From Candidatus Dormibacteria bacterium (GTDB taxonomy: Bacteria > Chloroflexota > Dormibacteria > Aeolococcales > Aeolococcaceae), in assembly GCA_049964715.1 (NCBI GenBank), contig JBMFXB010000007.1:4698-68697 (forward strand): DNA of 64,000 bases. Direction: 5' to 3'. Of the stretch, positions 420 through 36,079 are shown piece after piece. The translations under genes and the position numbers were made by a program. Position 1 is the stretch's first letter; each line of letters starts with the position of its first letter. The notes below the pieces were generated by a model, which was not told the DNA's origin, searched no databases, and was given only the letters and a program-made list of their open reading frames with translations.

Positions 420-1667
420 CTACTTTACAAATCCGAAGAATCGACGCTGCTTTTTCTTCCCTGCATCCTGTTTTTCTTCCTCGAGTGCAGCTGCTTCTTC
501 ACCTGTTATTCGCTGGCCAAGCCCATTGATGGCTGCTGTAGCTGGAGATGATGGTGCAAGGAGGGTTATAGGTGTTGAAGTCACTTGGGATTTGCTTACA
601 TTGACCCCATCATAGGGGATGACAATATGCGGAGCCATGTGGAGAAAGCTTTCAATACCCGCTTGATCGAGTCCTGGTCCTGTTTCCCGGTAATTCATGA
701 CAAGGGTAATTGTTTCCGGTTCCACATTGAGGACATTGAGAACCTGCATGAAGAGGTGTGCATTCTTTGTTCCTGTGAGCGATGGATCAAAGACCACAAC
801 ACGGAAATCGGACATCTCAATTGCATCGAGGGTAATTTCACTGAGGTATGAGGCAGTATCAGCAATGAGATACGTATATTCCTGCCTGAGATTTTCAATG
901 AGAACCCTGAGATGGGAGGTTGTTACGTAATCTGCCTGTTCAGGGCTCAGTGGAGCAAGCAACACATCGATCCCTTCAGGTCCCTTGACTATGGCTTGCT
1001 CAATAGACTCCATATCAGTAACTGCATCGTTTGTCGCAAGATCAACGATTGTCCGTTGGGAAGGAAGATTGAGGAGTGCACCAATGTCACCGAACTGAAG
1101 GGACAAATCAAGAAGGATGACACGTTCATTGGTGAGACGCTTGAGATCTATTGCAAGGTTTGTAGCAATGAGGGATTTGCCACTTCCTCCCTGGCCAGAA
1201 AGTACTGTGATGAGTGCACCGTTCTTTGTTTGAGCTGTACTGCCAGTTGACTGGGCATCATGAAGTGCACTGTTCGACTGGGAAATGGTCTGCCGCTTCT
1301 GTTCGAACTCAAAGACTCGTCGGACAGCAGCAATAAGGTCATCTCCCCGGTACGGTTTCTGTAGAAACTCACGGGCTCCGACATACATGGCCTGACGGTA
1401 GGCATCGTTTTCACTGTCAAGTGACGTGAGGATAATTCCCGTATAGGGGAGATGCTGCGAGAGAAGCTCAGTGGTTTGGAGACCGTCCATGCCAGGAAGT
1501 GATGCATCGATGATTGCAACATCTGGTTTCAGGCGAATTGCCTCCTGGAACGCAAATTCACCATCCCGAGCCGTGCCACACAGAGCAATACCGTCTTCAC
1601 GTTCTAGACGCTTCATGACGTTGCTTGTTATGTGCTGGCTCTCGTCAGCGAATAGGATGCGGATCAT
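420..1667 (-). CDS. cpaE: CpaE-family pilus assembly protein: receiver domain plus MinD/ParA-like ATPase
   Basis: N-terminal receiver (ILFADE, IIDASLPGMDG, FLQKP), P-loop SGQGGSGKS, LLDLSLQFGDI and a C-terminal RRFFGFVK tail. Confidence 0.88.
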   Translation of the reverse strand: MIRILFADESQHITSNVMKRLEREDGIALCGTARDGEFAFQEAIRLKPDVAIIDASLPGMDGLQTTELLSQHLPYTGIILTSLDSENDAYRQAMYVGAREFLQKPYRGDDLIAAVRRVFEFEQKRQTISQSNSALHDAQSTGSTAQTKNGALITVLSGQGGSGKSLIATNLAIDLKRLTNERVILLDLSLQFGDIGALLNLPSQRTIVDLATNDAVTDMESIEQAIVKGPEGIDVLLAPLSPEQADYVTTSHLRVLIENLRQEYTYLIADTASYLSEITLDAIEMSDFRVVVFDPSLTGTKNAHLFMQVLNVLNVEPETITLVMNYRETGPGLDQAGIESFLHMAPHIVIPYDGVNVSKSQVTSTPITLLAPSSPATAAINGLGQRITGEEAAALEEEKQDAGKKKQRRFFGFVK

Positions 1668-1821
1668 TGGTCAAGCAGTTCCTCGTTCACAGGCAGTGAT
1701 GTGATTGTACTCCCAGTCCAGTAAGGGACTGTCTCCACATATTCAATGATAGATGAGCAATGATGGCAATCCATACAACGTGTTGATGCGAATTGGGTAA
1801 CACCATCGTTACAATGTGCCA

Positions 1822-3093
1822 TTACTTCCCAAAAGCAAAACGCCGGCGCTTGGACGAGCTGGATGATTCCTTCCCTTCTTCAGGCACATCATCTTCACTG
1901 AGGAAGTAGTCAGTCAGAACCTTGAAGGCCTTCGTTATCTCAGCCTTTTGGGTCACAAGGACAAAAGGACTGCCATTGTCGACAGAGTCATCTACTGTCT
2001 TTGGATCGTAGGGAAGGGATGCAACTGCCTGATATCGGAGACTCGATTCAATGGCATCCTTGTTGAACTGAACCTTCTGTGCTGTTTGATTGAGCACAAG
2101 GAGGATCTTTTCCTGGGGTACACCAAGGGACTGCAGGAGTCGGAGTGTAATCTTTGTATTCTTGATTGACGTGACATTGTGTGAAGTCACGATGATGAGT
2201 GCATCAGAAAGTTCGATGGCTTCAAGCAGACGCTCCTCTAAATGGGAGGAGCCATCGATGACGATGTAGTCGAACATTTTCGACATTTCATGAATGATCG
2301 TGCGGATATCCGAGGTCATCACAAGATCTGCTAGTTCAGGACTTGTCGGAGACAGGAGTACCTTGAGTGCAGCTGGCCCATTTGCAAGGGTATCGTCGAT
2401 ATACTCTGCGTCAAGCTCTGGTTGCTGGGCCAGGGCATCAATGTGGTGCGGGTGTGAGGCAATTCCGATAAGGAGTCCGATATCACCAAACTGAAGGTCA
2501 AGGTCGATGAGTGCCACTCTTGCTTGTGACTGCTCGGATAGAGCAGCTGCAAGATTTGTTGCAATCAGTGACTTGCCCACACCACCCTTGCCGGAGAAGA
2601 CCATGAAGACCTCAGCCTTTCCTTCCTTCTTCTTGCTCCGACGGGGAGCAACAGGTTGAATTGGTTCTTCTTCCTCTTGAGGAGCCTCCACAGTTCGCCC
2701 ACAGACATGCTGGATGAGAGAGACAATCTCCTCGACACTCGTTGTGGCATCTATGACGGCTGAAATGGTGGGTCGTGCAGTGTGAGAGATCGTCGTTGTT
2801 GTGGGATTGGGGGAGAGGACAATAACTTTTGCATCCGGAACTATTGAAGCAACCTCGTCTACTGTTGCAAGGAGATCTACATTGCCGAAGTGCTCATTGA
2901 TGAGGATGACATCCGGATGTGTCCTTTCAAGTTCCTCGAAGAGTGTGGATGGCCTGCGGGCAACTCCACATATCTCAATTCCAGCACTGTTCAGACCCGA
3001 GTGGAGATACGAGATTGTGCGAGCAATCTCGGCAGCAATCAGGAGGCGTATTGAGGTGGGTTGAGATACCTGATTTTGTTCCATGGGTTCCAA
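1822..3093 (-). CDS. cpaE: CpaE-family pilus assembly protein: pseudo-receiver plus MinD/ParA-like ATPase
   Basis: Deviant Walker A SGKGGVGKS, LIDLDLQFGDI and a C-terminal RRRFAFGK tail. The receiver-like N-terminus lacks the phospho-acceptor Asp (ILINEH). It lies directly downstream of flp. Confidence 0.88.
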   Translation of the reverse strand: MEPMEQNQVSQPTSIRLLIAAEIARTISYLHSGLNSAGIEICGVARRPSTLFEELERTHPDVILINEHFGNVDLLATVDEVASIVPDAKVIVLSPNPTTTTISHTARPTISAVIDATTSVEEIVSLIQHVCGRTVEAPQEEEEPIQPVAPRRSKKKEGKAEVFMVFSGKGGVGKSLIATNLAAALSEQSQARVALIDLDLQFGDIGLLIGIASHPHHIDALAQQPELDAEYIDDTLANGPAALKVLLSPTSPELADLVMTSDIRTIIHEMSKMFDYIVIDGSSHLEERLLEAIELSDALIIVTSHNVTSIKNTKITLRLLQSLGVPQEKILLVLNQTAQKVQFNKDAIESSLRYQAVASLPYDPKTVDDSVDNGSPFVLVTQKAEITKAFKVLTDYFLSEDDVPEEGKESSSSSKRRRFAFGK

Positions 3094-3203
3094 TGGTATG
3101 TTCCTGGGCTAGTGCAGGGGTCGATACCTATTCTAGGGGATTTGAGGAGTTCCTGTACGGTTCTGGATCACAATTTGGTCACAAGACCATTTTGAAGATG
3201 CGC

Positions 3204-3235
3204 GAAAGGAGCCGCTCAGGAGAGCGACTCCTTTC
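3204..3235 (-). terminator. Strong stem-loop downstream of flp (terminator or mRNA-stabilising hairpin)
   Basis: On the minus strand GAAAGGAGTCGCTC-tcct-GAGCGGCTCCTTTC gives a 14-bp stem with one G-U pair, 26 nt after the flp stop. There is no U tract. Confidence 0.5.
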
Positions 3236-3261
3236 AAGTATCGGTGTAAAAACAACAAGGA

Positions 3262-3480
3262 TTACTTGTTGAGGCCGTTACTGATGTTGGAGAACACGTT
3301 GTTGACCTGCTTTCCAACAATGCTAAGAATGACGATTACGACAACTGCGATGAGAACCAGGATAAGTGCGTACTCGACCATACCCTGACCTTTCTCGCCT
3401 TCTTCCTCTTCAGGAACAACTTTGCGATGAAGCTTCTCGCGAAGCTTGATGTACAGAGAACTCAGCATGTCTTCTTTCAC
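3262..3480 (-). CDS. flp: Flp family type IVb pilin
   Basis: 72 aa with the Flp motif GQGMVEYALIL, a hydrophobic helix and the tail VFSNISNGL. A strong SD (AAAGGAGGTGA) lies upstream. Confidence 0.95.
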   Translation of the reverse strand: MKEDMLSSLYIKLREKLHRKVVPEEEEGEKGQGMVEYALILVLIAVVVIVILSIVGKQVNNVFSNISNGLNK

Positions 3481-5483: not shown

Positions 5484-5924
5484 ATGAGTGACGAGCAACG
5501 CAAGCGGATACTCGTTGTTGACGACGATCCACGGTTGCTGCATGTTGTGTCAGTGTACCTTGGTGGTATCGAGAACTACGATGTGGTGACTGCTTCAAGT
5601 GGTGAAGAGGCACTCGAGGTTCTCGCAGGGACAACTCCGGATCTGGTAATTCTGGATGTCATGATGCCAGGAATGGATGGCATTCAAGTGTGCGAGCATA
5701 TACGCCAAGATCCTGTAACCAAAGATCTCCCTGTTCTCATGTTTACTGCACTATCAAGCGATGAGGATGTTGCCCGTGCCCAGAGGGCCGGTGCAAGTAA
5801 GCACATTACGAAGCCCTTTACTCTTGGTGCATTGGGCTCAGTCATTCGCTCTTTCCTTCAGCCACCTGCAGCAGGATCGCAGACCGCAGGGCAGCATGAT
5901 GAGGCTACTGGTTCAGGCATGTAG
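5484..5924 (+). CDS. Single-domain response regulator (CheY-like receiver)
   Basis: ILVVDDD, LVILDVMMPGMDG, MFTA and ITKPF give a complete receiver active site. There is no output domain. Confidence 0.93.
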   Translation: MSDEQRKRILVVDDDPRLLHVVSVYLGGIENYDVVTASSGEEALEVLAGTTPDLVILDVMMPGMDGIQVCEHIRQDPVTKDLPVLMFTALSSDEDVARAQRAGASKHITKPFTLGALGSVIRSFLQPPAAGSQTAGQHDEATGSGM

Positions 5925-8305: not shown

Positions 8306-9247
8306 TCAGTGGCTGAACTCGGCAAACACCTTGATAAGTGCTGGCCCAAGCAACACGACAAAGAGCGTTGGAAAAATGCAAAACACCATCGGGAGCAGCA
8401 TCTTGATAGGCGCCTTCTGTCCAGCCTCTTCTGCCCGCTGACGTCTACGTCTTCGTATCTCTTCAGATTGAATGCGAAGTACGTTTGCAATACCGACACC
8501 CAGCTGTTCAGACTGGACAATGGCCTGTATGAACGTATTGAGTTCTTCAACATTCGAGCGAATACCCATGTCACTGAGTGCTTCATGCCGTGGGCGTCCG
8601 AGTCGAATTTCGGATAGTACCCTTGCAAACTCGTTTGAAAGGGCATTGTGGTACTTGTCTGTAACTCGAGCAAGGGCAGCATCAAAACCGAGGCCAGCCT
8701 CAACGCTAATGGTCAAGAGATCAAGTGCACTTGGAAGGGCAAGCACGAGTTCGCGCTTGCGTTTGTTCACTGAGACATTGAGCATGAGGGTAGGGAGAAG
8801 GTAGCCAAAGATGCCAAACCCTAACGTGCCGATGAAGACAAGTGAGAAGCCGTATGTCGCGACTGTGAGCCAGAGAGTGAGTAATAGGCCAATCAATGCC
8901 AACACGACGAAGGAGATCATTTGAAGGACAAAGAAACTTGCTGCATTGAGCCCAGCAGGCCTGCCAGCAAGGATCAGTCGGTCCTCGAGGATTGTCTGAC
9001 GGGCTGCTGGTGTGACACGGGCTGTCCAATTCGCCAACCGTTCAAGTGGTGGACGTATGACCCGGTCGAAAAATGACAACGACAGTTCCACTTCGGAGAG
9101 GTTCGTGACTACATGACCGCTTGCATTGAACTGGGCAAGGCGAGCTTCGATGATGTCTGATTGAGATCCCTGGTGGAGATTTGATCCGAGCCCAAGGACT
9201 ATGAGGAGGATCGCGACTCCACCAACAAGTGCAGCAAGAAGAGCCAT
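8306..9247 (-). CDS. tadC: Tad pilus inner-membrane platform protein TadC (T2SS F family)
   Basis: LPSALDLLTISVEAGLGFDAAL and AEEAGQKAPIKMLLPMVFCIFP. It lies immediately downstream of tadB. Confidence 0.93.
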   Translation of the reverse strand: MALLAALVGGVAILLIVLGLGSNLHQGSQSDIIEARLAQFNASGHVVTNLSEVELSLSFFDRVIRPPLERLANWTARVTPAARQTILEDRLILAGRPAGLNAASFFVLQMISFVVLALIGLLLTLWLTVATYGFSLVFIGTLGFGIFGYLLPTLMLNVSVNKRKRELVLALPSALDLLTISVEAGLGFDAALARVTDKYHNALSNEFARVLSEIRLGRPRHEALSDMGIRSNVEELNTFIQAIVQSEQLGVGIANVLRIQSEEIRRRRRQRAEEAGQKAPIKMLLPMVFCIFPTLFVVLLGPALIKVFAEFSH

Positions 9248-9252
9248 AGAGC

Positions 9253-10275
9253 CTATACCTCAATCTTCACAATACGCTGGATTATTCCAAATCCAACGAG
9301 AATTGCAAAAATGGAAATGCCACTGAGTATCCATCCAAAGGTTGTGGAGACAAGTGGGGTAAAGTATGAAGGTTCGATGAAGTACAGAAGCACTGCTACA
9401 CCAATGGGAAGTGCAGTGATGATATATCCGGAAGTTCGAGCCTGGGCAGTGAGAGTGCGGATCTCACCTTCAATACGAACTCGCTCCCGGATGGTGAATG
9501 CAATGGTATCGAGGATCTCTGCGAGATTACCACCAACGACACGCTGAATCTGGACAGCAGTTACCATGAGGTCAAAGTCTTCAGACTGGTTACGGTCCAC
9601 CATATGCTGGAGTGCTTCATCCACGTTTATTCCAAGTGCAATTTCTCGTGTCGCTCGTGCAAATTCATCCCCAATTGGGGGAGAGGAGGACTGAGCAACG
9701 GTACTTACAGACTGTGTGAACGAATATCCTGCCCGTAACGCATTGCTCAAAAGCATCATCGTGTCACCGAGTTGCCTATTGAATGCAGAGAGCCTTCGAG
9801 ACTGACGAATTCTGAGGTAGATCTGGCTACTGATGAGTGCAACGATTATCCCAATGGGAAGGGGAAGAATATTGCTGACACGAACACTGAAAAGTAGTCC
9901 CACAACTGCACCAACGATCACGATGAGGGTTAGCCATTCAGCAGGTTTGATGCGGAGATCTGCACGCGAGAGCTGTTCTGTCAGGTGCGATGTTGCAGTG
10001 GACCGTGAAAGTACTCTGTTCAGACTGCGAAAAAGTCCAGTAAGTGGAGATCGATTGCGATTATCGTCCATCTCGGGAGAACTTGTGGATTGGAGATTTT
10101 GATTTCCGTTAAATCGATTGAGTCTGTTGAGAACATCGTCACCCTGTGATGTAGGGGAGATGATGAACGCAGTCAGCGACATGATTGCAATGAACGCAAG
10201 GAGCGCACTGAGTACAGCGAGAGGCTGGAGTGTCATAGCTCCAACGAACATGCTGATCACTGCTTCATGCAACAT
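9253..10275 (-). CDS. tadB: Tad pilus inner-membrane platform protein TadB (T2SS F family)
   Basis: LSNALRAGYSF, QRVVGGNLAEILD, RERVRIEGEIRTLTAQAR and the C-terminal IVKIEV. Confidence 0.93.
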   Translation of the reverse strand: MLHEAVISMFVGAMTLQPLAVLSALLAFIAIMSLTAFIISPTSQGDDVLNRLNRFNGNQNLQSTSSPEMDDNRNRSPLTGLFRSLNRVLSRSTATSHLTEQLSRADLRIKPAEWLTLIVIVGAVVGLLFSVRVSNILPLPIGIIVALISSQIYLRIRQSRRLSAFNRQLGDTMMLLSNALRAGYSFTQSVSTVAQSSSPPIGDEFARATREIALGINVDEALQHMVDRNQSEDFDLMVTAVQIQRVVGGNLAEILDTIAFTIRERVRIEGEIRTLTAQARTSGYIITALPIGVAVLLYFIEPSYFTPLVSTTFGWILSGISIFAILVGFGIIQRIVKIEV

Positions 10276-10293: not shown

Positions 10294-11148
10294 TTACTGT
10301 CCACTGTTAAACATTTGCTCGATCTGTGCTGGTGTGACTGGCGGATCAGTTACCTGTGGCACAGTCGAATTTGCTGCAGTAGAGCTTTCGTAGTTTGGCT
10401 TCGTGGGCGTGCCATACTCGGTTGCAGGACGTATCACGTACTTGATTGCAACTGGAATATATGTGTTTGTTGAAGCTGTGCCAGTGTGAGTTACGAGCCA
10501 TGTGAGTTGTTCTGCCACACCGCGCGGAACCTGCACTATATACACACTTGGAGCTGCATTGCCACTTCCCTGAACTCCCACACACAGTACTTGGATGTCC
10601 TGAAACAGGTAGCGTACATTTCCATGCCCATCATCAGCAATGATGTCGATATGGTCGCCTGGTTGGATGTAGTAGCCAACACTCATGAGGTCTGCGCTCA
10701 CGCCAGTGAGATTGCCCTCACCTTGACCACCTGCTGGAATGGCAAGAGCAACAGTGCCCTTGGCAAGGATCTGTGGAATATTCTGGCAAGCTGTGGTACC
10801 AGATACTGCAGCTGACTGGTTGGTACTGCTGAGGATCATGCTTTGCGTGAGGATCGTATGGGCACTTGCATTGGAGACAAGTGCCTTCCCGACTATTTGC
10901 GTGGGATCAGTGAGGGCATCGGCAGGAACGAGTGACTGGGGTTCACTCGCGATAGTAACCTGCTGTGAAGTAACGCTTGATCCTGCAGAAATGGTCTGGG
11001 TTGCAACGAGGACATTCACTGAAGGACCATACTTGTTGCTTGTACCTTGGGATACTGCATACCAGATCAATGCAGCAGCGATGACAGCACACAGCACCCC
11101 TAATATCAGGAACACCTTTGAGTTGGACTTGTTCGCTGGAATACTCAC
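10294..11148 (-). CDS. cpaB: Flp pilus assembly protein CpaB/RcpC
   Basis: N-terminal TM anchor, SAF-like VLVATQTISAG and RcpC-like GYYIQPGDHIDII...LFQDIQVLCVG. Confidence 0.88.
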   Translation of the reverse strand: MSIPANKSNSKVFLILGVLCAVIAAALIWYAVSQGTSNKYGPSVNVLVATQTISAGSSVTSQQVTIASEPQSLVPADALTDPTQIVGKALVSNASAHTILTQSMILSSTNQSAAVSGTTACQNIPQILAKGTVALAIPAGGQGEGNLTGVSADLMSVGYYIQPGDHIDIIADDGHGNVRYLFQDIQVLCVGVQGSGNAAPSVYIVQVPRGVAEQLTWLVTHTGTASTNTYIPVAIKYVIRPATEYGTPTKPNYESSTAANSTVPQVTDPPVTPAQIEQMFNSGQ

Positions 11149-12843: not shown

Positions 12844-14586
12844 ATGAAGAAGGTTCACACGGTGCCATCAGGCTACGAGCAGGAAGTGCATGGTGAAGTC
12901 GCGACGATGATCGTCGACGAAGTTGGCATTATCGAACATGCCAATGAACATCTGCTTCGGCTTGGGGGGTGGGATCTTAAGATGCTCGTAGGGAAGGTTT
13001 GGTATGACGCACTTGTCCCAGTGAATGTACGTATGTCCGTTGCACAGCGGTTTGGATTTATCGTGAATGTGCGAAATGAACCCCACTATGTTGAAGCACC
13101 GCTCATTACACCAAATGGACAGCAGCGCATCATTGCATGGACCTTTACGGCCCAGCATGAGACTGATCTCGAACCATTCCGGTGGAGGGCTGTAGGAATT
13201 GATGTCACACACTGGATCAAGGAGCGGGATCTCCTTGTTGCGCGTATCGACTATGAGACTGTCCATGATCCACTGACTGGACTCATGAATGGAGTGACGT
13301 TTCGCGGCATGGTTGATACTCTCATTCGTAGTGCAATCGAACGTGAAGAAATCGTTGGTGTCATTCTTCTCAATATCGACAGGTTTCGCTCCATTGATGA
13401 GATAGCTGGGCGGGAAATAGGTGATTCCCTTCTCTTCGAGGTTGCCCAGCGGATCAAGCGGTGTCGTGGCAATGACATTATTGCGAGGTGGGGTGGTGAC
13501 GAATTCACCATTGCAGTCTCTGGCATTCGCACAAAGGAGGAAGTGGAAGCTGCAGCACGCCACATTGCAGAGCATATCCACTCCCCGTACCATATCGACG
13601 GTCGTTCATTTCATCTGCACACACGAATTGGTCTTTCAGTTGCCCCGCATGATGGTGCCCGGGCTGATGATCTCATGCAGCATGTGAGCGTTGCAGTTGA
13701 TGTTGCAAAGACACTTCGCGGTGATCATATTGTCTCCTTTTCTGAAGCTCTTGGCCGGCAGATTGAGGAACAGGTTGTACTTGAACAGGAACTTCATGGT
13801 GCAATTGAGCGGGGTGAAATTGTTGTTGTCTACCAAGCCCAGGTTGATGCTGTCACACGTGAGGTTGTTGGAGTCGAGGCACTTGCCAGGTGGTACCATT
13901 CCCGACTTGGCGAGATCAGTCCCACGGTCTTCATACCTATAGCAGAAGGAATTGGTCTCATTCGGACATTGGGACTGCACATCCTGCGTGAGTCACTTCT
14001 TCAGGCCAAACAGTGGAGAGAAATGGGATACCCTCCGTTTCGCATGGCTGTGAACATCTCTCCGCGGCAACTTGGCCATCCGACATTCGTACATGATGTC
14101 TTTGCACTTCTTGCCACAACAGACACTGATCCACGATTTCTTGAACTGGAGCTTACGGAAAGTGCTGTCATGGAGGACATGGAGTCTGCGACAGAAGTGC
14201 TCCAGTCGCTTGCAAGGTCTGGTATCTCGATTGCACTTGATGATTTTGGTACTGGATATTCATGTCTTGCCTATCTGGATCAGCTTCAGGTAAGTACAAT
14301 CAAGCTCGACCGTATCTTTCTCCGCTCCTCATCTCATGCAAAGGATCCAAATGCATTACTCCGAGGACTTATTGCACTTGGAAAGGCTCTCGACCTTCGC
14401 ATTGTTGCTGAGGGAGTTGAAAATGAGGAACATATTGCAAGGCTCGATCATGAGGGTGCAGATGTATATCAGGGATTTTTCTTCTCCCGTCCACTCACTG
14501 TCGATGAGGTAACACGACTCCTTGATCAATACGGTGTGAAGTCCGAGTTTGACAAGGAAACACCTCTCACTGAGAACGATAATTGA
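12844..14586 (+). CDS. PAS-GGDEF-EAL c-di-GMP metabolising protein (probably a phosphodiesterase)
   Basis: PAS/PAC, RxxD (RGND), RWGGDEF, VEALARW, ELTES, DDFGTGYS and AEGVE. Confidence 0.93.
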   Translation: MKKVHTVPSGYEQEVHGEVATMIVDEVGIIEHANEHLLRLGGWDLKMLVGKVWYDALVPVNVRMSVAQRFGFIVNVRNEPHYVEAPLITPNGQQRIIAWTFTAQHETDLEPFRWRAVGIDVTHWIKERDLLVARIDYETVHDPLTGLMNGVTFRGMVDTLIRSAIEREEIVGVILLNIDRFRSIDEIAGREIGDSLLFEVAQRIKRCRGNDIIARWGGDEFTIAVSGIRTKEEVEAAARHIAEHIHSPYHIDGRSFHLHTRIGLSVAPHDGARADDLMQHVSVAVDVAKTLRGDHIVSFSEALGRQIEEQVVLEQELHGAIERGEIVVVYQAQVDAVTREVVGVEALARWYHSRLGEISPTVFIPIAEGIGLIRTLGLHILRESLLQAKQWREMGYPPFRMAVNISPRQLGHPTFVHDVFALLATTDTDPRFLELELTESAVMEDMESATEVLQSLARSGISIALDDFGTGYSCLAYLDQLQVSTIKLDRIFLRSSSHAKDPNALLRGLIALGKALDLRIVAEGVENEEHIARLDHEGADVYQGFFFSRPLTVDEVTRLLDQYGVKSEFDKETPLTENDN

Positions 14587-21615: not shown

Positions 21616-23340
21616 GTGTCCCTTTTGGATAGAGTTCAGCAAAAGTCGCAACAAGCAGCAGGGCAGCAGGGCGCCAATCCTGCTACTTCAGGTGTGCCTC
21701 CTGCTGCACCACAAGTTGCATCTCCGAATTCACCACCACCCCCACCACCCCCACCAGTACTTCCTCCAAAGCAACAAATCCCGCCAGTTCAGGGAGGGGC
21801 AGGTCTTCTCAGCAGGACACAGCCACCTCAGGCACCAGTGCAACAGGCACCTCCTCTAGCGCTAACAGCGACTCCTGTACAACAGTCTCTTCAGGCACCA
21901 CAAGATGAAGAAGAGGATGCTGGTGGTGCAGGATGGGGTGTACGGAAGTCTGCAGGCGATAGTACTGAAACCCCGCCCGCGCCCCAGCAAATGCGTCAGA
22001 CACTCCTCAGCAGAACTGGGGGGATTTCAACAGTCACTCAGCGGCAGAATGCAGCTGGAGCTTCCTTCCAGAACCTTCGGCAACTTGTGAAGCAACGTCT
22101 GGTTGGTGAAATGGCAGAGGAGGAGGATATTGCACTTCCGCCACATGTCATTCGACAAAGAATAGAGGAACTTGTTGGTGAGATTTCTATCGAGTTGAGC
22201 CTCAATCTCACGAGGATTGATCGTCAACGTGCTGTGGAAAGCATTGTTCAAGATGTTATCGGCTTCGGTCCTCTCGACAGTCTCATTGCAGATCCAGACA
22301 TTTCAGAAATAATGATCAATGGTCCAAAGCAGATTTATATTGAGCATGCTGGAAAGCTTGTCCTTTCGGAAGTACAGTTCGAAACCAATGAACAACTCAT
22401 GCAAGTCATTGACAAGATTGTCAGCAGTATTGGACGTCGTGTTGATGAGTCATCACCTATGGTAGATGCTCGTCTCAAGGATGGCTCCCGTGTAAATGTC
22501 ATCATTCCTCCACTTGCTCTCTGCGGTCCTACTATGACAATCCGAAAATTTGCGAAGGAACGATACCAGACGAACGATCTCATTCGATTCGGCTCTGTCA
22601 CGGATGACATGCTCACGTTTCTTCGGGCATGTGTTCGTGGACACCTCAACATGATTGTTAGTGGTGGTACTGGTTCTGGTAAGACGACAACACTCAACAT
22701 CCTGAGTGCCTTTATTCCGGATACTGAACGGATAGTAACCATCGAGGATGCTGCTGAACTTCAACTCCAGCAGGATCATGTCATTACGTTGGAGTCACGA
22801 CCTGCAAACGTGGAAGGAAAGGGAAGAATTGCCATTCGTGATCTCCTCATGAATGCTCTGCGCATGCGACCAGACCGTATTGTCGTTGGTGAGTGTCGTG
22901 GTGGAGAAGCTCTCGACATGCTCCAGGCCATGAATACTGGTCATGATGGCTCGATGACTACCATCCATGCGAACAATCCACATGACTGTATTGCGCGACT
23001 TGAGACTCTCGTGCTCATGGCTGGTGCGGAACTTCCTGCCCGAGCCATTAGGGAACAGATTGGCTCAGCTGTGCACATCATCACGCAGCAGTCTCGGCTT
23101 CGAGATGGCACCCGTAAGATGATCAGCATCACCGAGGTGCTCGGAAAGGTTGGTGACTCGGTGAAGACGCAGGAGATTTTCACGTTCAAGCAAACAGGCA
23201 TTGGCGAAGACGGCAAGGTTCTTGGGTACTTCACTCCTACTGGCAACATTCCCCGCATTCTCAGAAAACTCCGTGCTGAAGGCGAAGATATTCCAGAAGA
23301 GATCTTTGACCCGTCACGAGTTTCGAAACTGGCCTCGTAG
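21616..23340 (+). CDS. cpaF: Tad pilus assembly ATPase CpaF/TadA
   Basis: GGTGSGKTT, TIEDAAEL, RIVVGECRG and NTGHDGSMTTIHAN. A Pro/Gln-rich N-terminal extension; GTG start with a GGGAGG SD. Confidence 0.95.
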   Translation: MSLLDRVQQKSQQAAGQQGANPATSGVPPAAPQVASPNSPPPPPPPPVLPPKQQIPPVQGGAGLLSRTQPPQAPVQQAPPLALTATPVQQSLQAPQDEEEDAGGAGWGVRKSAGDSTETPPAPQQMRQTLLSRTGGISTVTQRQNAAGASFQNLRQLVKQRLVGEMAEEEDIALPPHVIRQRIEELVGEISIELSLNLTRIDRQRAVESIVQDVIGFGPLDSLIADPDISEIMINGPKQIYIEHAGKLVLSEVQFETNEQLMQVIDKIVSSIGRRVDESSPMVDARLKDGSRVNVIIPPLALCGPTMTIRKFAKERYQTNDLIRFGSVTDDMLTFLRACVRGHLNMIVSGGTGSGKTTTLNILSAFIPDTERIVTIEDAAELQLQQDHVITLESRPANVEGKGRIAIRDLLMNALRMRPDRIVVGECRGGEALDMLQAMNTGHDGSMTTIHANNPHDCIARLETLVLMAGAELPARAIREQIGSAVHIITQQSRLRDGTRKMISITEVLGKVGDSVKTQEIFTFKQTGIGEDGKVLGYFTPTGNIPRILRKLRAEGEDIPEEIFDPSRVSKLAS

Positions 23341-30455: not shown

Positions 30456-30916
30456 TTGCATTAGCCATTCCCCATGCACTTGTCGTAACGACACAGTGGC
30501 TTATTGCGTATGGTGTCGTACTATGGCTCGTTGTTGCATGGTCAGTAGTTCACGATGCGATGCGCCGGAGTGACCAGTACTGGTTCTATGCCATTGCTCT
30601 CATTCTTGGGCTGTTTCCTCCATTTCTGGGAGCAATCCTGTATTGGATCATCCGTCCTGCAAGTACGCTAGCCGAGCGAGAAACACAGAAGTTGGAACAG
30701 GCAATGCTTCGTGAAGCTGGAGGACCTCTTTGTCCAACATGTCACTCACAACTTCACGAGGATTTCCTTCTTTGTCCTGTGTGCCGCACGAGAGTTGCTC
30801 ATGCATGTAGATCATGTTCAAAGACTCTTGATGTCGCCTGGAAGGTATGTCCATATTGTGAGACACCAGTGGAGGTGTCTGGATCGAAGAAGGAAACTGC
30901 TGCAGGCACGGTGTAG
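30452..30916 (+). CDS. Membrane protein with PLDc_N-like hairpin and C-terminal double zinc ribbon
   Basis: Two TM segments (..DAMRR...PFLGAILYWIIRP), then CPTC, CPVC, CRSC and CPYC. A 4-nt overlap with valS. Confidence 0.85.
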   Translation: MIALAIPHALVVTTQWLIAYGVVLWLVVAWSVVHDAMRRSDQYWFYAIALILGLFPPFLGAILYWIIRPASTLAERETQKLEQAMLREAGGPLCPTCHSQLHEDFLLCPVCRTRVAHACRSCSKTLDVAWKVCPYCETPVEVSGSKKETAAGTV

Positions 30917-30917
30917 T

Positions 30918-32576
30918 ATGCCTGGAATCGTCACAAACGGTGCATCCCTCCTCATTGCGACGATAGTAGCGATGGCAGGAGTGGTTGCTGCTCACAGGTC
31001 TAGGAGGGCTGTGAAGAGTATCGTTGTCGTGACTGCTGCTCTCATGCTGCCACTTGCTGCACTAGCAGTTCGTGCAGTGGTACAGGGCGGGCCAGAGGTT
31101 GCAAGTCTTTGGCTTCTTCTGCCGCAGGTGCATGTTGTGTGGGACATGAGCCAGGTTGCTGCTGTGGGATGTTCCTGCATTTGCCTTGCATTCGGTGCGA
31201 TTGCCCTTGGGGATTGGACAACTGCCCGCACAGTGCTTCCACTCTTCGTAGGTGGCATCGGAGGAATTCTTGCATGGTGCACAGGCAATTTTGTCTGCAT
31301 GCTTGCAGCACTCATCTTGGTGAATGGATCGTTCATACTTCAGGAGCGGCCGAAGCTGCAGCTTTCGTGGGGAATTGCTGTTCTCCCCATTGCAATCCTT
31401 GCCCTTGCGAATATAACGCTCCTTTCAAGCTTTGGTACGAGCGACTATTTCCTCATAGGGAGCAATGCTGGTGGGTATTGGGTGGGATTTGGCTTGCCTC
31501 TTGCTGGTTATCTGGAATGCGTGCTGCCTGCTGTTGTTGCCTGGAAGTCAGGAACACTTCAACGAGGAATATGGACTGCAGTAGTTGGTGCTGCACTCCT
31601 GGCTCACACAGCTGAGGTAATTGGTCTGCAACAGCTGCAAAGCGGTCCAATTGCAGCTGCAACAATAGTGAGCTGTACGACTATCATGTTGGGCATCCTG
31701 GGATACCACTGGCGGGAATCCGGCCGTCATGCCCTTCTTGCCCTGTATGCAGCAGTCTCTGGACCAGCAGTGATATCACTGTACTTTTCTGATGAGGCAA
31801 CCATCCTTGTCATGATTCTTTGCACTGCAGTCTCACTGCTTGTAATCTGCACTGTTGTTCCGGATGTCCGGTTTCTTGAAGCAAATCGCTATCGCTGGAC
31901 AGGTTGGTTGCATCGGGCAATACTTCTTGGTGCAGCAGGTGTACCGCCCGGGGCTGCAGCCATTGGTTGGTGGTCCATCCTTGCCCTCCTTATTGCACGT
32001 GGTCCAACGTGGACTGCTGCCAGTATCCTTGCACTTGCTGCATGGCTTTCAGTGATTGCACTTGCTGTGGTTCTTGCACGTGGCTTCTCACCCTTGCGGA
32101 GCGATGCCACTCAATCACGTTCACCATGTCTTCGTGAACGCATGGCAGCAATTCTTGGCATTATTGTGCTGTTTGGCACAGGTCTCATTCCAGCTGTGCC
32201 TGTTGGGGGAGTGCTGAGTCTTCTTGCATCAGCAAACCTGGTTGTTGCTTCCTCAACTACACTTCAACTTCCTGGTGGCGTTGTCGGCAGTGCTGCACTT
32301 GGTAGTGCAGTGATCGTGCTTGTACTCTTCGGGTGGGCACTTGGAACCCTGTCGGGAACTGTGGTGTATCAGGATGTGGAGTTACCAGCAACTCATGAAA
32401 CATTACCAATTGGCCTGCATGCAGGCCAGGCAATTCGAGGTCTGGGTGCACTAGGATGGCACATGTGGAGACGTGGTGTCCACTACCTCAATGAAGGTGA
32501 TCTTTTGCTCCGGGATCAACCCCGACTTGCCATGATTCTCGTTGGGGCAGCAATCATCATAGTATTGGTGCATTGA
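30918..32576 (+). CDS. Divergent proton-translocating-subunit-like (NuoL/MrpA/HyfB-like) membrane protein
   Basis: 552 aa with about 14-16 TM segments. LLGAAGVPP resembles the antiporter-like LxGxPP motif. The conserved Glu/Lys are not evident. Confidence 0.55.
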   Translation: MPGIVTNGASLLIATIVAMAGVVAAHRSRRAVKSIVVVTAALMLPLAALAVRAVVQGGPEVASLWLLLPQVHVVWDMSQVAAVGCSCICLAFGAIALGDWTTARTVLPLFVGGIGGILAWCTGNFVCMLAALILVNGSFILQERPKLQLSWGIAVLPIAILALANITLLSSFGTSDYFLIGSNAGGYWVGFGLPLAGYLECVLPAVVAWKSGTLQRGIWTAVVGAALLAHTAEVIGLQQLQSGPIAAATIVSCTTIMLGILGYHWRESGRHALLALYAAVSGPAVISLYFSDEATILVMILCTAVSLLVICTVVPDVRFLEANRYRWTGWLHRAILLGAAGVPPGAAAIGWWSILALLIARGPTWTAASILALAAWLSVIALAVVLARGFSPLRSDATQSRSPCLRERMAAILGIIVLFGTGLIPAVPVGGVLSLLASANLVVASSTTLQLPGGVVGSAALGSAVIVLVLFGWALGTLSGTVVYQDVELPATHETLPIGLHAGQAIRGLGALGWHMWRRGVHYLNEGDLLLRDQPRLAMILVGAAIIIVLVH

Positions 32577-33217
32577 CAATGGACCAGACGCTGTATAGCT
32601 CCATTGCATTTATTGCTGCATTCATCGTTAGTGCAGTAGATGGAAGGCGTGCTGTATCGTGGTCACTTATTGCAGCAGGCGTTGGATTAGCCGGGACAGC
32701 AGCCTCTGCAGCAGGCCTTGATGGTGCCCTCCTGCTTGTGGGTGCTGTTGTGTGTGGAGGTATTCTTGAAAGAGTCGCTGAATGGCTCGTGAGGAGCCGT
32801 TGGCAGTCTTCTGCACAGGATCCACTCCGGGAATTCAGGAGTGTCCAAGAGAAGCTCTTTGGGCCCAGAAGTCAGCGCGTCATTGCAGCAGCAATTGCTG
32901 TTCCGGCAGCCTCCTGGGTGAGTTTCAACATACCTGTTGGATCTGTTGCAAATATTGAGGGGGTCCTGTTTGCATCCTGCATTCTCTGGTTGTGTGGCAT
33001 TTTTCGGCTCGTACTTGCCCGGACGATTGAGGATGTCTGTGCAGGAACCGGAGTCGTACTCCTGGCAACAGCAGTCGGCTGGCTCGAACGGACAGGACAA
33101 AGTGGCCTACCAGAGTATGTCGTTCTCCTTGTGAGCACGGCTGGTATTGCACTTCTTGCCGGTATTCTCAATGGTCGTTACCTGCACCACGTGGATCAGG
33201 GAGTTGAGCATGCCTGA
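32573..33217 (+). CDS. Membrane protein, HyfE/NuoJ-K-sized
   Basis: 214 aa with about 7 TM segments, translationally coupled to its neighbours. The C-terminal GIFRLVLAR pattern loosely resembles NuoK/HyfE. Confidence 0.45.
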   Translation: MTMDQTLYSSIAFIAAFIVSAVDGRRAVSWSLIAAGVGLAGTAASAAGLDGALLLVGAVVCGGILERVAEWLVRSRWQSSAQDPLREFRSVQEKLFGPRSQRVIAAAIAVPAASWVSFNIPVGSVANIEGVLFASCILWLCGIFRLVLARTIEDVCAGTGVVLLATAVGWLERTGQSGLPEYVVLLVSTAGIALLAGILNGRYLHHVDQGVEHA

Positions 33218-34466
33218 TATCCGCTTGGTCCTTGGTATCTGGCTCATCACGGGCGTGGTGGATGGAGTTGTGCATGTTGCTCTTCGGAGAAGAAGGTGGA
33301 ACTGGAGTGTTGGTCTCGTGCTCCATGTAGGCTGGTCGCTTTTGTTGTGGTGGGGTGTATTGGGGATGGGGGTACATCCTGACCCAATGATTCGGGCTGG
33401 AGTAGGTATTATCCTCACTGCAGCAATGGCAACAGCAGTTCTTATGCCACTCACGGGAGAAGTAGATCTCCGGGACTACGCAGTCCTCGCATGGATCACT
33501 GGTGCAGTCTTGTATGCAGTCCAGGTGACAGATCCTCTTGCTGTGGCATTCATGATCGGAGCTGGCAGTGCCCTTGTGGCAGGATGGTGGTTCTACTGCG
33601 CACCTGGCACAGAGACGCTCCGTGCAGCACGATTGCTTGGTGTTGCAGCAGGACTGCTGCTTGCAGCTGCCATATTTCTGCCAGTTCAGGTGACTGCAGT
33701 GGCGACAAAGTTTGCTTTTGTTGCATGGCTGTATATCGCTGTCCTTGTCATTTATACGGGATGCATTCCTGTACAGGGGTGGTTAGTGAGTGTTCTGCAT
33801 CGGCTTCAGGGAAGACATCTCCTGCTGTGGATTAGTGTTGTTGTGCCAGGCACACTCATCGTGCTGGAACGAGCAATCCAGATACAGCCACTCCCTGTCC
33901 AGAACATTATTCTCCAGACGACGCTAGGCATCGGTTGCATCAGTGCAGTGTGGGAGGGGATTCTTTCAGTCCGAATATCTTCACCACGTGAGCGGCATGC
34001 ACGACTCCTCCTTATGGACATTGCATTGATGGTTGTGGGAGTGGGAAGCGGATCGCCATACGGATGGACGGGGACTTTCTTGCTGGTACTGGTTCATGTG
34101 GGAACCCTCGCATTTGTCGGGGACAGGGAAGGAAGTACAACGGGAAGGAAGGGTCGCATGGGTGCCTGGATATTCCTTGGAGGGATACCTTTTACAGGAG
34201 TGTTCTGGGGAAGATGGTTGATACTTCTTGCAGCATGGGATGTAGGGTCATGGTATCCATGGTTCGTCCTTGCTGCAATGGGCCTTGCTTCTTTCTCCAG
34301 CTTCCGACAGGCCCGCTTCGAAAGAGACCTTCCTGAAGTAACTCCTGCCTTTCGATCATGGATACCACTTGGAATCCTTTCGTTGCAACTTGTTCTGGGG
34401 CTTGCTCCTGCAACAATATGCAGCTTCGTGTTCGGAATGACACTCCTCCCGGGGGTGGGACACTAG
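33210..34466 (+). CDS. Divergent NuoN/MrpD/HyfF-like membrane protein
   Basis: 418 aa. GCIPVQGWL resembles GxxPFHxWL, GWTGTFLLVLVH resembles the TM11 His motif, and LGGIPFTGVFWGRWLI resembles LAGxPPxxGFxGKxxI. Confidence 0.65.
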   Translation: MPDIRLVLGIWLITGVVDGVVHVALRRRRWNWSVGLVLHVGWSLLLWWGVLGMGVHPDPMIRAGVGIILTAAMATAVLMPLTGEVDLRDYAVLAWITGAVLYAVQVTDPLAVAFMIGAGSALVAGWWFYCAPGTETLRAARLLGVAAGLLLAAAIFLPVQVTAVATKFAFVAWLYIAVLVIYTGCIPVQGWLVSVLHRLQGRHLLLWISVVVPGTLIVLERAIQIQPLPVQNIILQTTLGIGCISAVWEGILSVRISSPRERHARLLLMDIALMVVGVGSGSPYGWTGTFLLVLVHVGTLAFVGDREGSTTGRKGRMGAWIFLGGIPFTGVFWGRWLILLAAWDVGSWYPWFVLAAMGLASFSSFRQARFERDLPEVTPAFRSWIPLGILSLQLVLGLAPATICSFVFGMTLLPGVGH

Positions 34467-35209
34467 TGGATCCTGTCGTGCTCTTCGCTTCCATTGTCGC
34501 AGTGATGGTGTATCCAGGAGGAGTGGTGCTGTATCTCCCTGCAATGTGTGCACGAGTTGCCCATCTTGTGGAGATGCGAGCACAACAACTCCCGTCAGGT
34601 CGTCCACTTATTGGAACCGGCACTGTGATTGCCCTCCTTGCCTGTGCAGTTGCTGCAGCCCAACTTCCCTTGCCAGGAAATCTCCTTACCTCGAGCATTG
34701 TCGTTGCACATGGTTCATATACGGATGTGGCAGTGTTCCTTGTTGCGTCCTCCATTGCATTGGTTGCAAGTGTTCGTAACCGGTTGGCACCATCACAAAT
34801 GCTCTCTGCTGGCGCTGCTGTCCTTGCGTTACTTGTGCTTGCAATTCATGCCCGATCTCTGACGTTTGCTGCTGTAGTGGAGACTGGTGGATCCCATGCA
34901 GCCTTGCTGCATGTCATTGCAGGTATTGTGTATGTACTTGTTGCACCAGGATTGTTGAGTGTATTCAACAGCAGGATTCATCTCACAGCCCCACTTACTG
35001 TTACATTTCTCTTGTGGGAACTCATCGTTGCACTGGCGATCCTTCCAGCTTTTGCCACTTGGGTTGCATGGGTTGGGGCCGTGTTTGTACTCCTGGTATT
35101 GGGTGGAGCAGTTTGGAAGGCACGCAAGATGACAGTACTTGTGCGGATAACGAGCATTGCATCAATACTCTGTGCTTGTGTGCTGATGGTCATTGGCGTG
35201 AAGAACTAG
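34466..35209 (+). CDS. Divergent NuoH/HyfC-like membrane protein
   Basis: GTG start overlaps the upstream TAG. MVYPGG, QLPLPG, TDVAVFL and AIHARSLTFAAVV resemble NuoH-family motifs; about 8 TM segments. Confidence 0.5.
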   Translation: MDPVVLFASIVAVMVYPGGVVLYLPAMCARVAHLVEMRAQQLPSGRPLIGTGTVIALLACAVAAAQLPLPGNLLTSSIVVAHGSYTDVAVFLVASSIALVASVRNRLAPSQMLSAGAAVLALLVLAIHARSLTFAAVVETGGSHAALLHVIAGIVYVLVAPGLLSVFNSRIHLTAPLTVTFLLWELIVALAILPAFATWVAWVGAVFVLLVLGGAVWKARKMTVLVRITSIASILCACVLMVIGVKN

Positions 35210-35240
35210 ATCTTGTTCCACTGACTCATGTTTGCAACAA

Positions 35241-35263
35241 CCCCCCTTCACAAACTGGGGGGG
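35241..35263 (+). terminator. C6/G7 stem-loop after the membrane-gene cluster
   Basis: CCCCCC-ttcacaaact-GGGGGGG, 31 nt after the stop at 35209. There is no U tract. Confidence 0.3.
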
Positions 35264-35296
35264 CTGGATGGTACGATTAAAAGGCAGGAGGTACCA

Positions 35297-36028
35297 GTGC
35301 GTATGACCAGTTCCACATCTAAATCAATTCGTGGTGGGGAATCCCCGCTGCCTACTGGTCCATCACCTATTATCCTTGCTTCCACGAGTCCACGACGACA
35401 GGCTCTTCTCGCCCGATGTGGAATCCGGTTCAGTGTCCAGGAACCTGGTACTGAGCTCCAAATGCCTCCTGGACTGAGTTGTGATCTTGGAGTACAGCTT
35501 ATTGCACGTCAGAAGGCTCTCTCAGTTGCAGAGCACTCAAGTGCGAATGCATTCATCATTGCAGCGGATACAATCGTTGTTGGCCCTGAAGGACCATTGG
35601 GAAAACCATACACTCCAGAACGTGCTCGGGAGATGCTAAAACTCCTCATTGGGAACAGGCACACTGTGCTAACGGGGGTGTGTGTTGCAACAGCCCATGG
35701 TGAGACCATTGAGCTTGGTGTGAGTCGTTCAGCCGTGAAAATGCGCGATGTAAGTGACGAAGATCTTGATACGTACGTAGCTTCTGGCGAGCCTCTCGAC
35801 AAGGCAGGTGCATATGCAGTGCAGGAAGGCGGAAGGGATCTTGTTGAGGCTGTGATGGGACGTGTTGACACAGTGGTGGGTCTTGATGTGGAGCTTACGC
35901 TACAGCTTCTTTTGCGGGTTGGATATCCGAATCCACTGCCAGCATCGACTGACATTGCACTTCCTCCACGTGGGAATGCAAGGCGACCCTTTGCATCGCT
36001 CCAGACGAGTGGAACGTTTCGCGTCTAG
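35297..36028 (+). CDS. maf: Maf/YhdE family nucleoside triphosphate pyrophosphatase
   Basis: ILASTSPRR, ARQKA, IAADTIV, LGKP and DKAGAYAVQ. An AGGAGG SD precedes the GTG. Confidence 0.92.
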   Translation: MRMTSSTSKSIRGGESPLPTGPSPIILASTSPRRQALLARCGIRFSVQEPGTELQMPPGLSCDLGVQLIARQKALSVAEHSSANAFIIAADTIVVGPEGPLGKPYTPERAREMLKLLIGNRHTVLTGVCVATAHGETIELGVSRSAVKMRDVSDEDLDTYVASGEPLDKAGAYAVQEGGRDLVEAVMGRVDTVVGLDVELTLQLLLRVGYPNPLPASTDIALPPRGNARRPFASLQTSGTFRV

Positions 36029-36079
36029 GGAACGGGAGGAGTAGGGGAAACCGTGCAGAACTACTTTCGTGGGCTGCGG

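Follow-up and report, generated by a model that had tools for sequence, protein, structure and literature searches.

Three TadZ/CpaE-like paralogues in a Dormibacterota tad neighbourhood, one combining an intact receiver with a putatively non-hydrolysing ATPase site

The window analysed here, a stretch of 64,000 nucleotides from a Candidatus Dormibacteria bacterium (contig JBMFXB010000007.1, positions 4,698 to 68,697), contains three paralogous genes, C1, C2 and C3, whose products are TadZ/CpaE-like by architecture and gene context. TadZ/CpaE proteins bind ATP, display little ATPase activity, dimerise, and act as the hub of the Tad pilus machine. The products carry a receiver-like domain and, C-terminal to it, a MinD/ParA-like one, as judged from Pfam, hhalign, AlphaFold and Foldseek, and they are encoded in a tad/flp setting, with a flp gene adjoining C2, and with tadB, tadC and cpaB homologues and a T2SSE-family ATPase gene elsewhere in the window. 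The favoured interpretation, to which a probability of roughly 0.55 is given, is that these are three TadZ-type hub paralogues in which C1 would be a non-hydrolysing, phospho-responsive scaffold that assembles with C2 and C3 around the Tad motor.

C1 retains a complete receiver. Pfam assigned Response_reg to residues 4-116 (E-value 8e-19), alongside MinD/ParA-type P-loop families, and the residues of a phosphorylatable two-component receiver are all in place: the acidic pair D8-E9, the phospho-acceptor D54 within the motif IIDASLP (codon 1508..1506), T81/S82, F101 and K104-P105. In the AlphaFold model (predicted local distance difference test score, pLDDT, 85) the key residues sit at the predicted ends of strands 1, 3, 4 and 5 (residues 2-7, 50-54, 77-82 and 100-103), and the modelled receiver superposes on those of Spo0A and DesR at 1.2-1.3 Å. 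The top Foldseek matches to the C1 model were the Protein Data Bank (PDB) entries 3ea0 and 3fkq.

The P-loop of C1 reads LSGQGGSGKS, which places Gln159 at the position of the signature Lys (codon CAG, 1193..1191) and keeps the Walker Lys164. In addition, Ser189 (codon 1103..1101) occupies the position of the catalytic Asp (D40 of MinD, D60 of FlhG), C1 reading LLDLSLQFGD where C2 and C3 read [LV][IV]DLDLQFGD. HMMER alignments to solved structures set Ser189 opposite FlhG Asp60, the single residue in which PDB entries 4rz2 (LLDMDIG) and 4rz3 (LLDMAIG) differ; MinD D40A and FlhG D60A are mutants of this catalytic position. Catalysis in the ParA/MinD family depends on this Walker A' Asp, which has been mutated to trap ATP-bound dimers, and the signature Lys contacts ATP in trans (PMC6582323, PMC8684754). 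Because Ser, a TadZ-type feature, stands at the catalytic-Asp position in every C1 examined (76 of 76), C1 is predicted to have been a non-hydrolysing ATPase domain already in the common ancestor of the phylum.

C2, which is 30% identical to C1 over the full length (E-value 1e-50), has a complete MinD-type set (P-loop FSGKGGVGKS, with GKGGVGKS and DLD), and in the window lineage it is the only paralogue to possess the signature Lys, the Walker Lys and the Asp-x-Asp motif together. Its receiver region does not have the residues of a phosphorylatable receiver: the acidic pair reads A-E, Asn63 stands at the acceptor position (ILINEH; codon 2898..2896), D-A replaces K-P, and the Response_reg match (E-value 1.4e-3) falls below the Pfam cutoff. 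A full-length profile-profile alignment of C2 with C1 (hhalign, probability 100%) set Asn63 opposite D54 and the Asp-Ala pair opposite K104-P105. The AlphaFold model of C2 (pLDDT 79) displays a receiver-like β/α fold in which helix 4 is missing; Foldseek matched this model to 3ea0 with a target-normalised TM-score of 0.90, and the alignment with 3fkq spans both domains. Two starts are available to C2, TTG at 3093 and ATG at 3084, and the latter is the likelier because the database protein P0078 has 420 amino acids.

The third paralogue enters the window only as a fragment, the translation of which ends ...QQDKKKQRKLFGK. This fragment is identical to the tail of a complete 417-amino-acid gene (L087:5311-6564) from a strain that is ~98.6% identical to the window. 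The full-length C3 of that strain, and likewise that of L001, a relative with a C1 protein 93% identical to that of the window, has a canonical receiver (DD, the D of LMDINMP, S and KP) and a P-loop, GGKGGVGTS, with the signature Lys present and Thr at the position of the Walker Lys. The C-terminus of each of the three consists of a few basic residues and then F/L-x-F/L-G: KKKQRRFFGFVK in C1, KRRRFAFGK in C2 (invariant in the C2 family as RRRFSLGR) and KKKQRKLFGK in C3. An amphipathic helix has been proposed for the C-terminus of CpaE (PMC13170226), and in sequence the three tails resemble both this helix and the membrane-targeting tail of MinD.

An initial annotation of this DNA had described two CpaE-like open reading frames (ORFs), at 420-1667 and 1822-3093. 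Both are indeed present, on the minus strand, the second probably starting at 3084, and both the Gln in the SGQGGSGKS P-loop of C1 and the combination of SGKGGVGKS with a pseudo-receiver in C2 were recovered by alignment, Pfam and AlphaFold. The full active site claimed for the C1 receiver holds for the acidic pair, D54 and K104-P105, but the conserved β4 residue is Ser82 and not Thr. The depiction of a two-member tandem system has to be abandoned, C3 having been overlooked at the window edge (1-357), as was the second active-site substitution of C1, Ser189.

The three paralogues were followed through 80 Dormibacterota genome loci, out of 336 related loci, with each CpaE-like ORF classed against C1, C2 and C3; every related locus belongs to a Candidatus Dormibacterota genome. 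Of the 80, 69 show the order C2(+) C1(+) C3(-), and contig ends account for most of the exceptions; each of the three families is monophyletic in a rough neighbour-joining tree. C2 and C1 form a closely linked, conserved pair directly downstream of flp: in 51 of 72 loci the C2 stop codon precedes the start of C1 by no more than 20 nucleotides, the commonest gap being 9 nucleotides. A 1.53-kb gene separates C2 from C1 in 11 loci, L054 (8621-9943), L039, L040, L048, L055, L058, L059, L062, L067, L068 and L076. This 1.5-kb insertion, which the window does not have, was considered as a candidate TadA and rejected: its product is a secreted coiled-coil protein whose C-terminus is M23-peptidase-like.

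Within the C1 family the acceptor Asp is kept in 75 of 75 sequences, K-P in 76 of 76 and Ser in 73 of 76, and this retention makes it reasonable to propose that two-component signalling is coupled to the Tad machine. The Walker Lys is kept in all but one C1 orthologue (Arg in L067), and the signature position is Lys in all 73 orthologues from outside the window lineage; in the surveyed loci Gln is confined to the window, L004, L005 and a near-identical strain. None of 71 C2 sequences has Asp at the acceptor position (H 37, Y 12, S 10, N 6, G 3). C2 has Lys at the signature position, Thr at the Walker position in about half of the sequences (GKGGTGTS) with the canonical residue in the others, and mostly Asp, with Asn in a few, at the catalytic-Asp position. 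In C3 the receiver motifs are invariant (75 of 75), the signature Lys is present, the Walker Lys is mostly canonical, with Thr in a few lineages including that of the window, and the catalytic Asp is mostly kept. Taken together, the family patterns amount to a weaker, phylum-wide form of complementarity, in which C1 pairs a live receiver with a dead catalytic-Asp site and C2 a dead receiver with a usually live one.

The combinations of ATPase-site residues were scored in 66 genomes, using a code that gives the signature Lys, Walker Lys and catalytic Asp positions in that order for C1, C2 and C3 in turn. KKS, KTD, KKD was found in 33 genomes, KKS, KKD, KKD in 20, KKS, KKN, KKD in 5, and QKS, KKD, KTD in the 3 genomes of the window lineage; four rarer combinations make up 5 genomes in total. 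The C3 site is canonical in 61 of the 66, and at least one fully canonical copy is present in 65. The dead half-sites differ by lineage, comprising the C2 Walker Lys in one clade, and the C1 signature Lys and C3 Walker Lys in that of the window. Loss of the Walker Lys from both C2 and C3 was seen once against ~2.7 expected if the two were independent, a difference that is not significant given the few independent events and an analysis made with no phylogenetic correction.

The age and constancy of the Lys-to-Gln change in C1 were examined in the window lineage. Since the window belongs to a metagenome-assembled genome, on a long branch with 111 fixed differences from other C1 sequences, an assembly or sequencing error, or a C1 pseudogene in decay, was considered. 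The same CAG codon is found in a second strain (~98.6% identical, 50 differences in 3,600 bases) that was assembled independently from separate runs at 23-30x and shows no variant at 1191-1193, and again in two further species-level relatives. These relatives, ~93% identical in protein, are only ~80% identical in coding DNA, with saturated synonymous divergence (dS 1.2-2.7), and the ratio of non-synonymous to synonymous divergence (dN/dS) is 0.01-0.02 for C1 and 0.01-0.03 for C1 and C2 together. The recurrent codon, the purifying selection and an intact ORF with a confident fold prediction led to both artefact and pseudogene being rejected as next to impossible. The Gln-bearing C1 is a maintained protein under strong purifying selection.

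A wider set of 197 homologues has K at the signature position in 190, R in 2 and Q in 5. Those with Q represent three distinct lineages, namely that of the window, P0051, a member of the C1 family, and P0070, encoded beside a secretin gene, and all Q variants keep the Walker Lys and carry Ser or Asn at the catalytic-Asp site. The contigs of P0051 and P0070 (2.4-5.3 kb), P0070 lying just after the secretin gene, are too short to show a canonical partner. Very few radical changes at otherwise invariant C1 positions mark the window lineage, among them Lys to Gln, V162S in the P-loop and T293F. The Lys-to-Gln change is thus best described as a late, lineage-specific substitution in a site that was, to judge from its residues, already non-catalytic. 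Gln would be tolerable there because the signature Lys is less needed once hydrolysis has been lost, if events took place in that order. The window lineage comes from mine-drainage and tailings metagenomes, and its G+C content is ~51-56%, against 58-72% (mean 67.6%) in other Dormibacterota loci; many replacements of Arg by Gln, His, Lys or Thr in C1 fit this low-GC shift.

These results bear directly on the idea, put forward in the initial annotation, that C1 and C2 are an obligate heteromer or relay that arose by complementary degeneration, with C1 as the sensor of phosphorylation and C2 as the source of the ATPase switch. The genes are adjacent, co-oriented and usually 9 nucleotides apart throughout the phylum, every C1 is without the catalytic Asp and every C2 without the acceptor Asp, and C2 is the only fully canonical copy in the window lineage. 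Moreover, Caulobacter CpaE works as a ring of dimers: in the model fitted to cryo-tomography, six dimers encircle the CpaF hexamer and touch one another through their receivers (PMC13170226). Such a relay is nevertheless considered unlikely. When co-occurrence of the two substitutions in orthologous pairs was checked over the 80 loci, the pseudo-receiver proved to be phylum-wide and the Lys-to-Gln change restricted to the window lineage; because the former is ancient and the latter is recent, lineage-specific and located in an already non-catalytic copy, the two do not form a co-evolved or matched pair. What remains of the complementary degeneration is the phylum-wide combination of Ser in C1 with a dead receiver in C2. 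C1 and C2 need not divide the work between them, because C3 has a canonical receiver and a mostly canonical ATPase site. In about half of the genomes C2 itself is without the Walker Lys. Finally, by the MinD/ParA mechanism a sandwich heterodimer would be expected to cripple both sites, as the C1 Gln would face and disable the C2 pocket and the C1 pocket is without Asp, which predicts a locked dimer in place of a switch supplied by C2. On the same reasoning, sandwich dimers of the window lineage would contain two competent sites as C2:C2, one as C2:C3 and none as C1:C2, because in the last of these one pocket has no Asp and the other receives Gln in trans.

The interpretation preferred here is that C1, C2 and C3 would be membrane-tethered subunits of the Tad motor hub. 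C2 would be the structural, catalytically complete member, of the classical TadZ type, and C1 and C3, with their presumably phosphorylatable receivers, the phosphorylation-responsive members. C1 would bind ATP through its intact Walker Lys without hydrolysing it, and may in this way serve as a phosphorylation-responsive, membrane-tethered scaffold, that is, a stable adaptor that does not turn over; Gln159 would further weaken or alter its ATP-bridged contact with a partner. Together the three proteins could form a CpaE-type ring around the TadA/CpaF motor, and phosphorylation of the C1 and C3 receivers would determine if the pilus machine is assembled, or at what site. Heteromer formation as such is plausible. 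A stricter version, in which the three paralogues make up an obligate heteromeric ring with asymmetric composite ATP sites, phospho-gated through C1 and C3 and with a dead half-site that drifts between lineages, is regarded as doubtful; if true, no earlier example of a TadZ hub that is both heteromeric and phospho-controlled would exist.

Several observations weigh against this model. ATP binding, the lack of hydrolysis, phosphorylation and co-assembly are all deduced from sequence. The large ORFs scanned, which cover the window up to ~56 kb, included no histidine kinase, and a search for RNA evidence of expression found none, the locus being missing from the metatranscriptomes of the same study, in which the sole related contig (136 nucleotides, 90-95% alike) lies over flp. 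The second acidic receiver residue of C1 is Gly in 36 orthologues (DG) and Glu in 33 (DE), and phosphorylation of C1 may not be family-wide because half of the orthologues have Gly there. In one genome, L045 (JAJZNI010000098), there is no fully canonical copy, C2 and C3 both reading GTS and C1 having Ser, and a catalytic C2 or C3 is for that reason not strictly required. The 111 fixed differences of the window-lineage C1 include new Lys or Arg residues at 176, 228, 289 and 359, and cyanobacterial McdA, which has no signature Lys in its P-loop, still dimerises and hydrolyses ATP by using a Lys from elsewhere (PMC6582323).

The last two points raise the question of whether the C1 of the window lineage is still a competent dimerising ATPase, with another basic residue standing in for the signature Lys in the manner of McdA. 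There, Lys151 reaches in from a distant helix (PMC6582323), and its transfer back to the P-loop recovers part of the function (PMC8684754). C1 has Gln159 in place of the signature Lys, together with lineage-specific basic residues that are candidate substitutes (R107, K176, K228, R289 and K359), and it is subject to strong purifying selection. The general low-GC compositional shift explains many of the substitutions, however. Hydrolysis by C1 is unlikely whatever Lys acts in trans, because the catalytic Asp is missing, and a relocated Lys is on balance a very improbable explanation.

The features of the window that bear on these questions are collected in Table 1.

Table 1. Features of the C1-C2-C3 region and tad-related genes elsewhere in the window
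Feature	Coordinates	Strand	Evidence and remarks
C3, third CpaE/TadZ paralogue, C-terminal 118 codons	1..357	+	Convergent with C1; cut by the window edge
C1, receiver plus TadZ/MinD-type ATPase domain, 415 amino acids	420..1667	-	ORF reading, Pfam, AlphaFold, Foldseek
C2-C1 spacer	1668..1821	-	Inverted repeat GTAAC-N6-GTTAC; GAGGA Shine-Dalgarno-like site
C2, atypical (pseudo-)receiver plus canonical MinD-type site	1822..3084	-	Alternative TTG start at 3093
flp-C2 spacer	3085..3261	-	GC-rich hairpin GGAGTCGCTC...GAGCGGCTCC; terminator-like hairpin overlapping the flp stop
Flp/Fap-type Tad pilin gene	3262..3480	-	Pfam PF04964, E-value 2.9e-9; directly upstream of C2
CheY-like single-domain response regulator	5484..5924	+	Pfam Response_reg, E-value 6.6e-30; between two tad gene groups
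Two T2SSF-family platform genes	8306..10275	-	TadC-like 9247..8306, TadB-like 10275..9253; PF00482 on the L001 orthologues
CpaB/RcpC-like (SAF domain) gene	10294..11148	-	PF08666 SAF on the L001 orthologue
T2SSE-family secretion ATPase, candidate TadA/CpaF motor	21616..23340	+	Pfam T2SSE, E-value 1.7e-64, residues 217-493 of 574

The gene order at the left end of the window is flp, C2, C1 and then, convergently, C3, and the flp-C2 order is shared with relatives. The tadB, tadC and cpaB homologues lie 5-8 kb from the C2/C1 area and the T2SSE ATPase gene 18 kb away, such that the locus is dispersed and does not form a single operon; a gene for a TPR protein is also found in the tad neighbourhood, and the position of the CheY-like regulator is conserved in L001. 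This dispersal bears on a further alternative, in which the paralogues do not co-assemble but serve separate machines or conditions (different pilins, poles or placement at division) and are clustered through tandem duplication. It is common for MinD/ParA paralogues to position separate cargos (PMC11407121), C3 points in the opposite direction and adjoins the ribosomal L1/L11/NusG cluster and not tad genes, and in the window lineage C1 has a conserved upstream spacer of its own. The 64 kb showed a single flp gene, a single tadB/tadC pair and a single T2SSE gene, however, and the three families have been together since the base of the phylum, with C2 and C1 usually translationally coupled. Separate machines are accordingly judged quite unlikely, and a shared hub remains the preferred reading of the cluster.

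Both spacers next to C2 are unusually well conserved. In the window lineage the C2-C1 spacer is 93% identical in nucleotide sequence to those of L004 and L005, against ~80% in coding DNA, and its inverted repeat is perfect and lies just after the C2 stop codon. The flp-C2 spacer is 88% identical to that of relatives, against ~80% for the flanking genes at the DNA level. A search for an RNA element in these conserved spacers gave no Rfam match and a fold no better than those of shuffled sequences; it is because of this that a conserved promoter or operator is the more likely explanation for them, and the C2-C1 spacer is probably a promoter or operator of C1 in the window lineage. Within the flp-C2 spacer, the terminator-like site (3271..3253) overlaps the flp stop codon and is followed by the 10-bp GC-rich hairpin at ~3200-3232 (minus strand), an arrangement that would be consistent with attenuation acting between the pilin gene and the cpaE genes downstream of it. 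Scans for sigma-70 promoters and terminators returned site counts within those obtained for shuffled sequences.

Other genes of the window deserve brief mention. A GGDEF-EAL protein is encoded at 12844-14586 (plus strand), adjoining the group of TPR, cpaB, tadB and tadC genes, which suggests an input of cyclic di-GMP to the same pilus system. The T2SSE ATPase (574 amino acids) has an N-terminal extension of ~200 residues with no Pfam match, and its gene is 10 kb from the nearest tad gene, with genes for trigger factor, ClpP and ClpX as neighbours. At 30711-37108 (plus strand) there are four consecutive ORFs (621, 214, 439 and 283 amino acids) with no Pfam match, followed by a DUF11 protein; the AT skew of this region is strongly negative relative to the rest of the window.

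No core component of the Tad pilus is less well understood than TadZ/CpaE, and the examples studied are single-copy proteins with a dead receiver. The presence here of two copies with intact phospho-acceptor sites points to direct two-component control of the pilus machine at its hub, and the triplication of TadZ makes the ring-of-dimers model of CpaE testable with heteromers. The residue losses that affect different copies in different lineages constitute a natural mutational series for the TadZ nucleotide site. The Lys-to-Gln change itself is less important than was first thought, and the phylum-wide TadZ triad is the real feature. These conclusions, which are built on the sequences of uncultured organisms, should be of use to research on Tad pili and on ParA/MinD ATPases. 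In the literature searched there was no account of a phosphorylatable TadZ/CpaE, of TadZ paralogue sets or heteromers, or of Tad pili in Dormibacterota.

The consensus of the TadZ motif is K/RGGXGXS/T, and TadZ typically has an atypical receiver (bioRxiv 10.64898/2026.07.08.737194). C2 (KGGVGKS) and C3 (KGGVGTS) fit the motif, from which C1 (QGGSGKS) departs; as to the receiver, C2 is atypical in the expected manner, and C1 and C3 are not because their receivers are canonical. C2 thus agrees with TadZ/CpaE in every sequence-level respect. The scores against family models were below threshold: for NCBIfam TIGR03815 (CpaE_hom_Actino / Ssd) C1 reached 40.2 and C2 49.4 bits against a cutoff of 154.45, and for the MinD models TIGR01968 and TIGR01969 the scores were 65.9-92.7 bits (E-values 1e-18 to 1e-26) against cutoffs of 201.75-212.9.

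Among known proteins, TadZ of Eubacterium rectale (PDB 3FKQ) and CpaE of Caulobacter crescentus share with the paralogues described here the two-domain layout, the encoding among flp/tad genes and the basic or amphipathic C-terminal tail, and the non-phosphorylatable receiver of C2 resembles the atypical receiver of TadZ. They differ in that there are three paralogues here and not one, that C1 and C3 have canonical receivers, that C1 is without the K/R of the TadZ motif, and that the tad genes are dispersed, with no secretin seen. 3FKQ was not detected by PDB sequence search even at E ≤ 1, and surfaced only by fold comparison. The ParA-family, TadZ-like protein 3EA0 of Chlorobium tepidum is the best sequence match to C2 (E-value 5e-21) and the best structural match to the models of both C1 and C2 (target-normalised TM-score ~0.9). 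Like every C1 it has Ser at the catalytic-Asp position (vDiSlpFGD), but it has the signature Lys without the Walker Lys (KGGdGgS), the reverse of C1 (QGGSGKS), and its crystallised chain contains no receiver domain. MinD, FlhG and FleN are alike in fold, in the P-loop and Asp-x-Asp motif of C2 and C3, and in the C-terminal tail of basic residues and Phe/Leu-Gly; they are set apart by the N-terminal receiver and Tad gene context found here, and by the absence from C1 of the signature Lys and catalytic Asp. Finally, McdA, a functional and conserved protein that naturally has Ser/Thr in place of the signature Lys of the P-loop, parallels the missing Lys of C1, but it keeps the catalytic Asp that C1 has lost and is a very active ATPase with its relocated Lys, and its cargo and domain layout are different.

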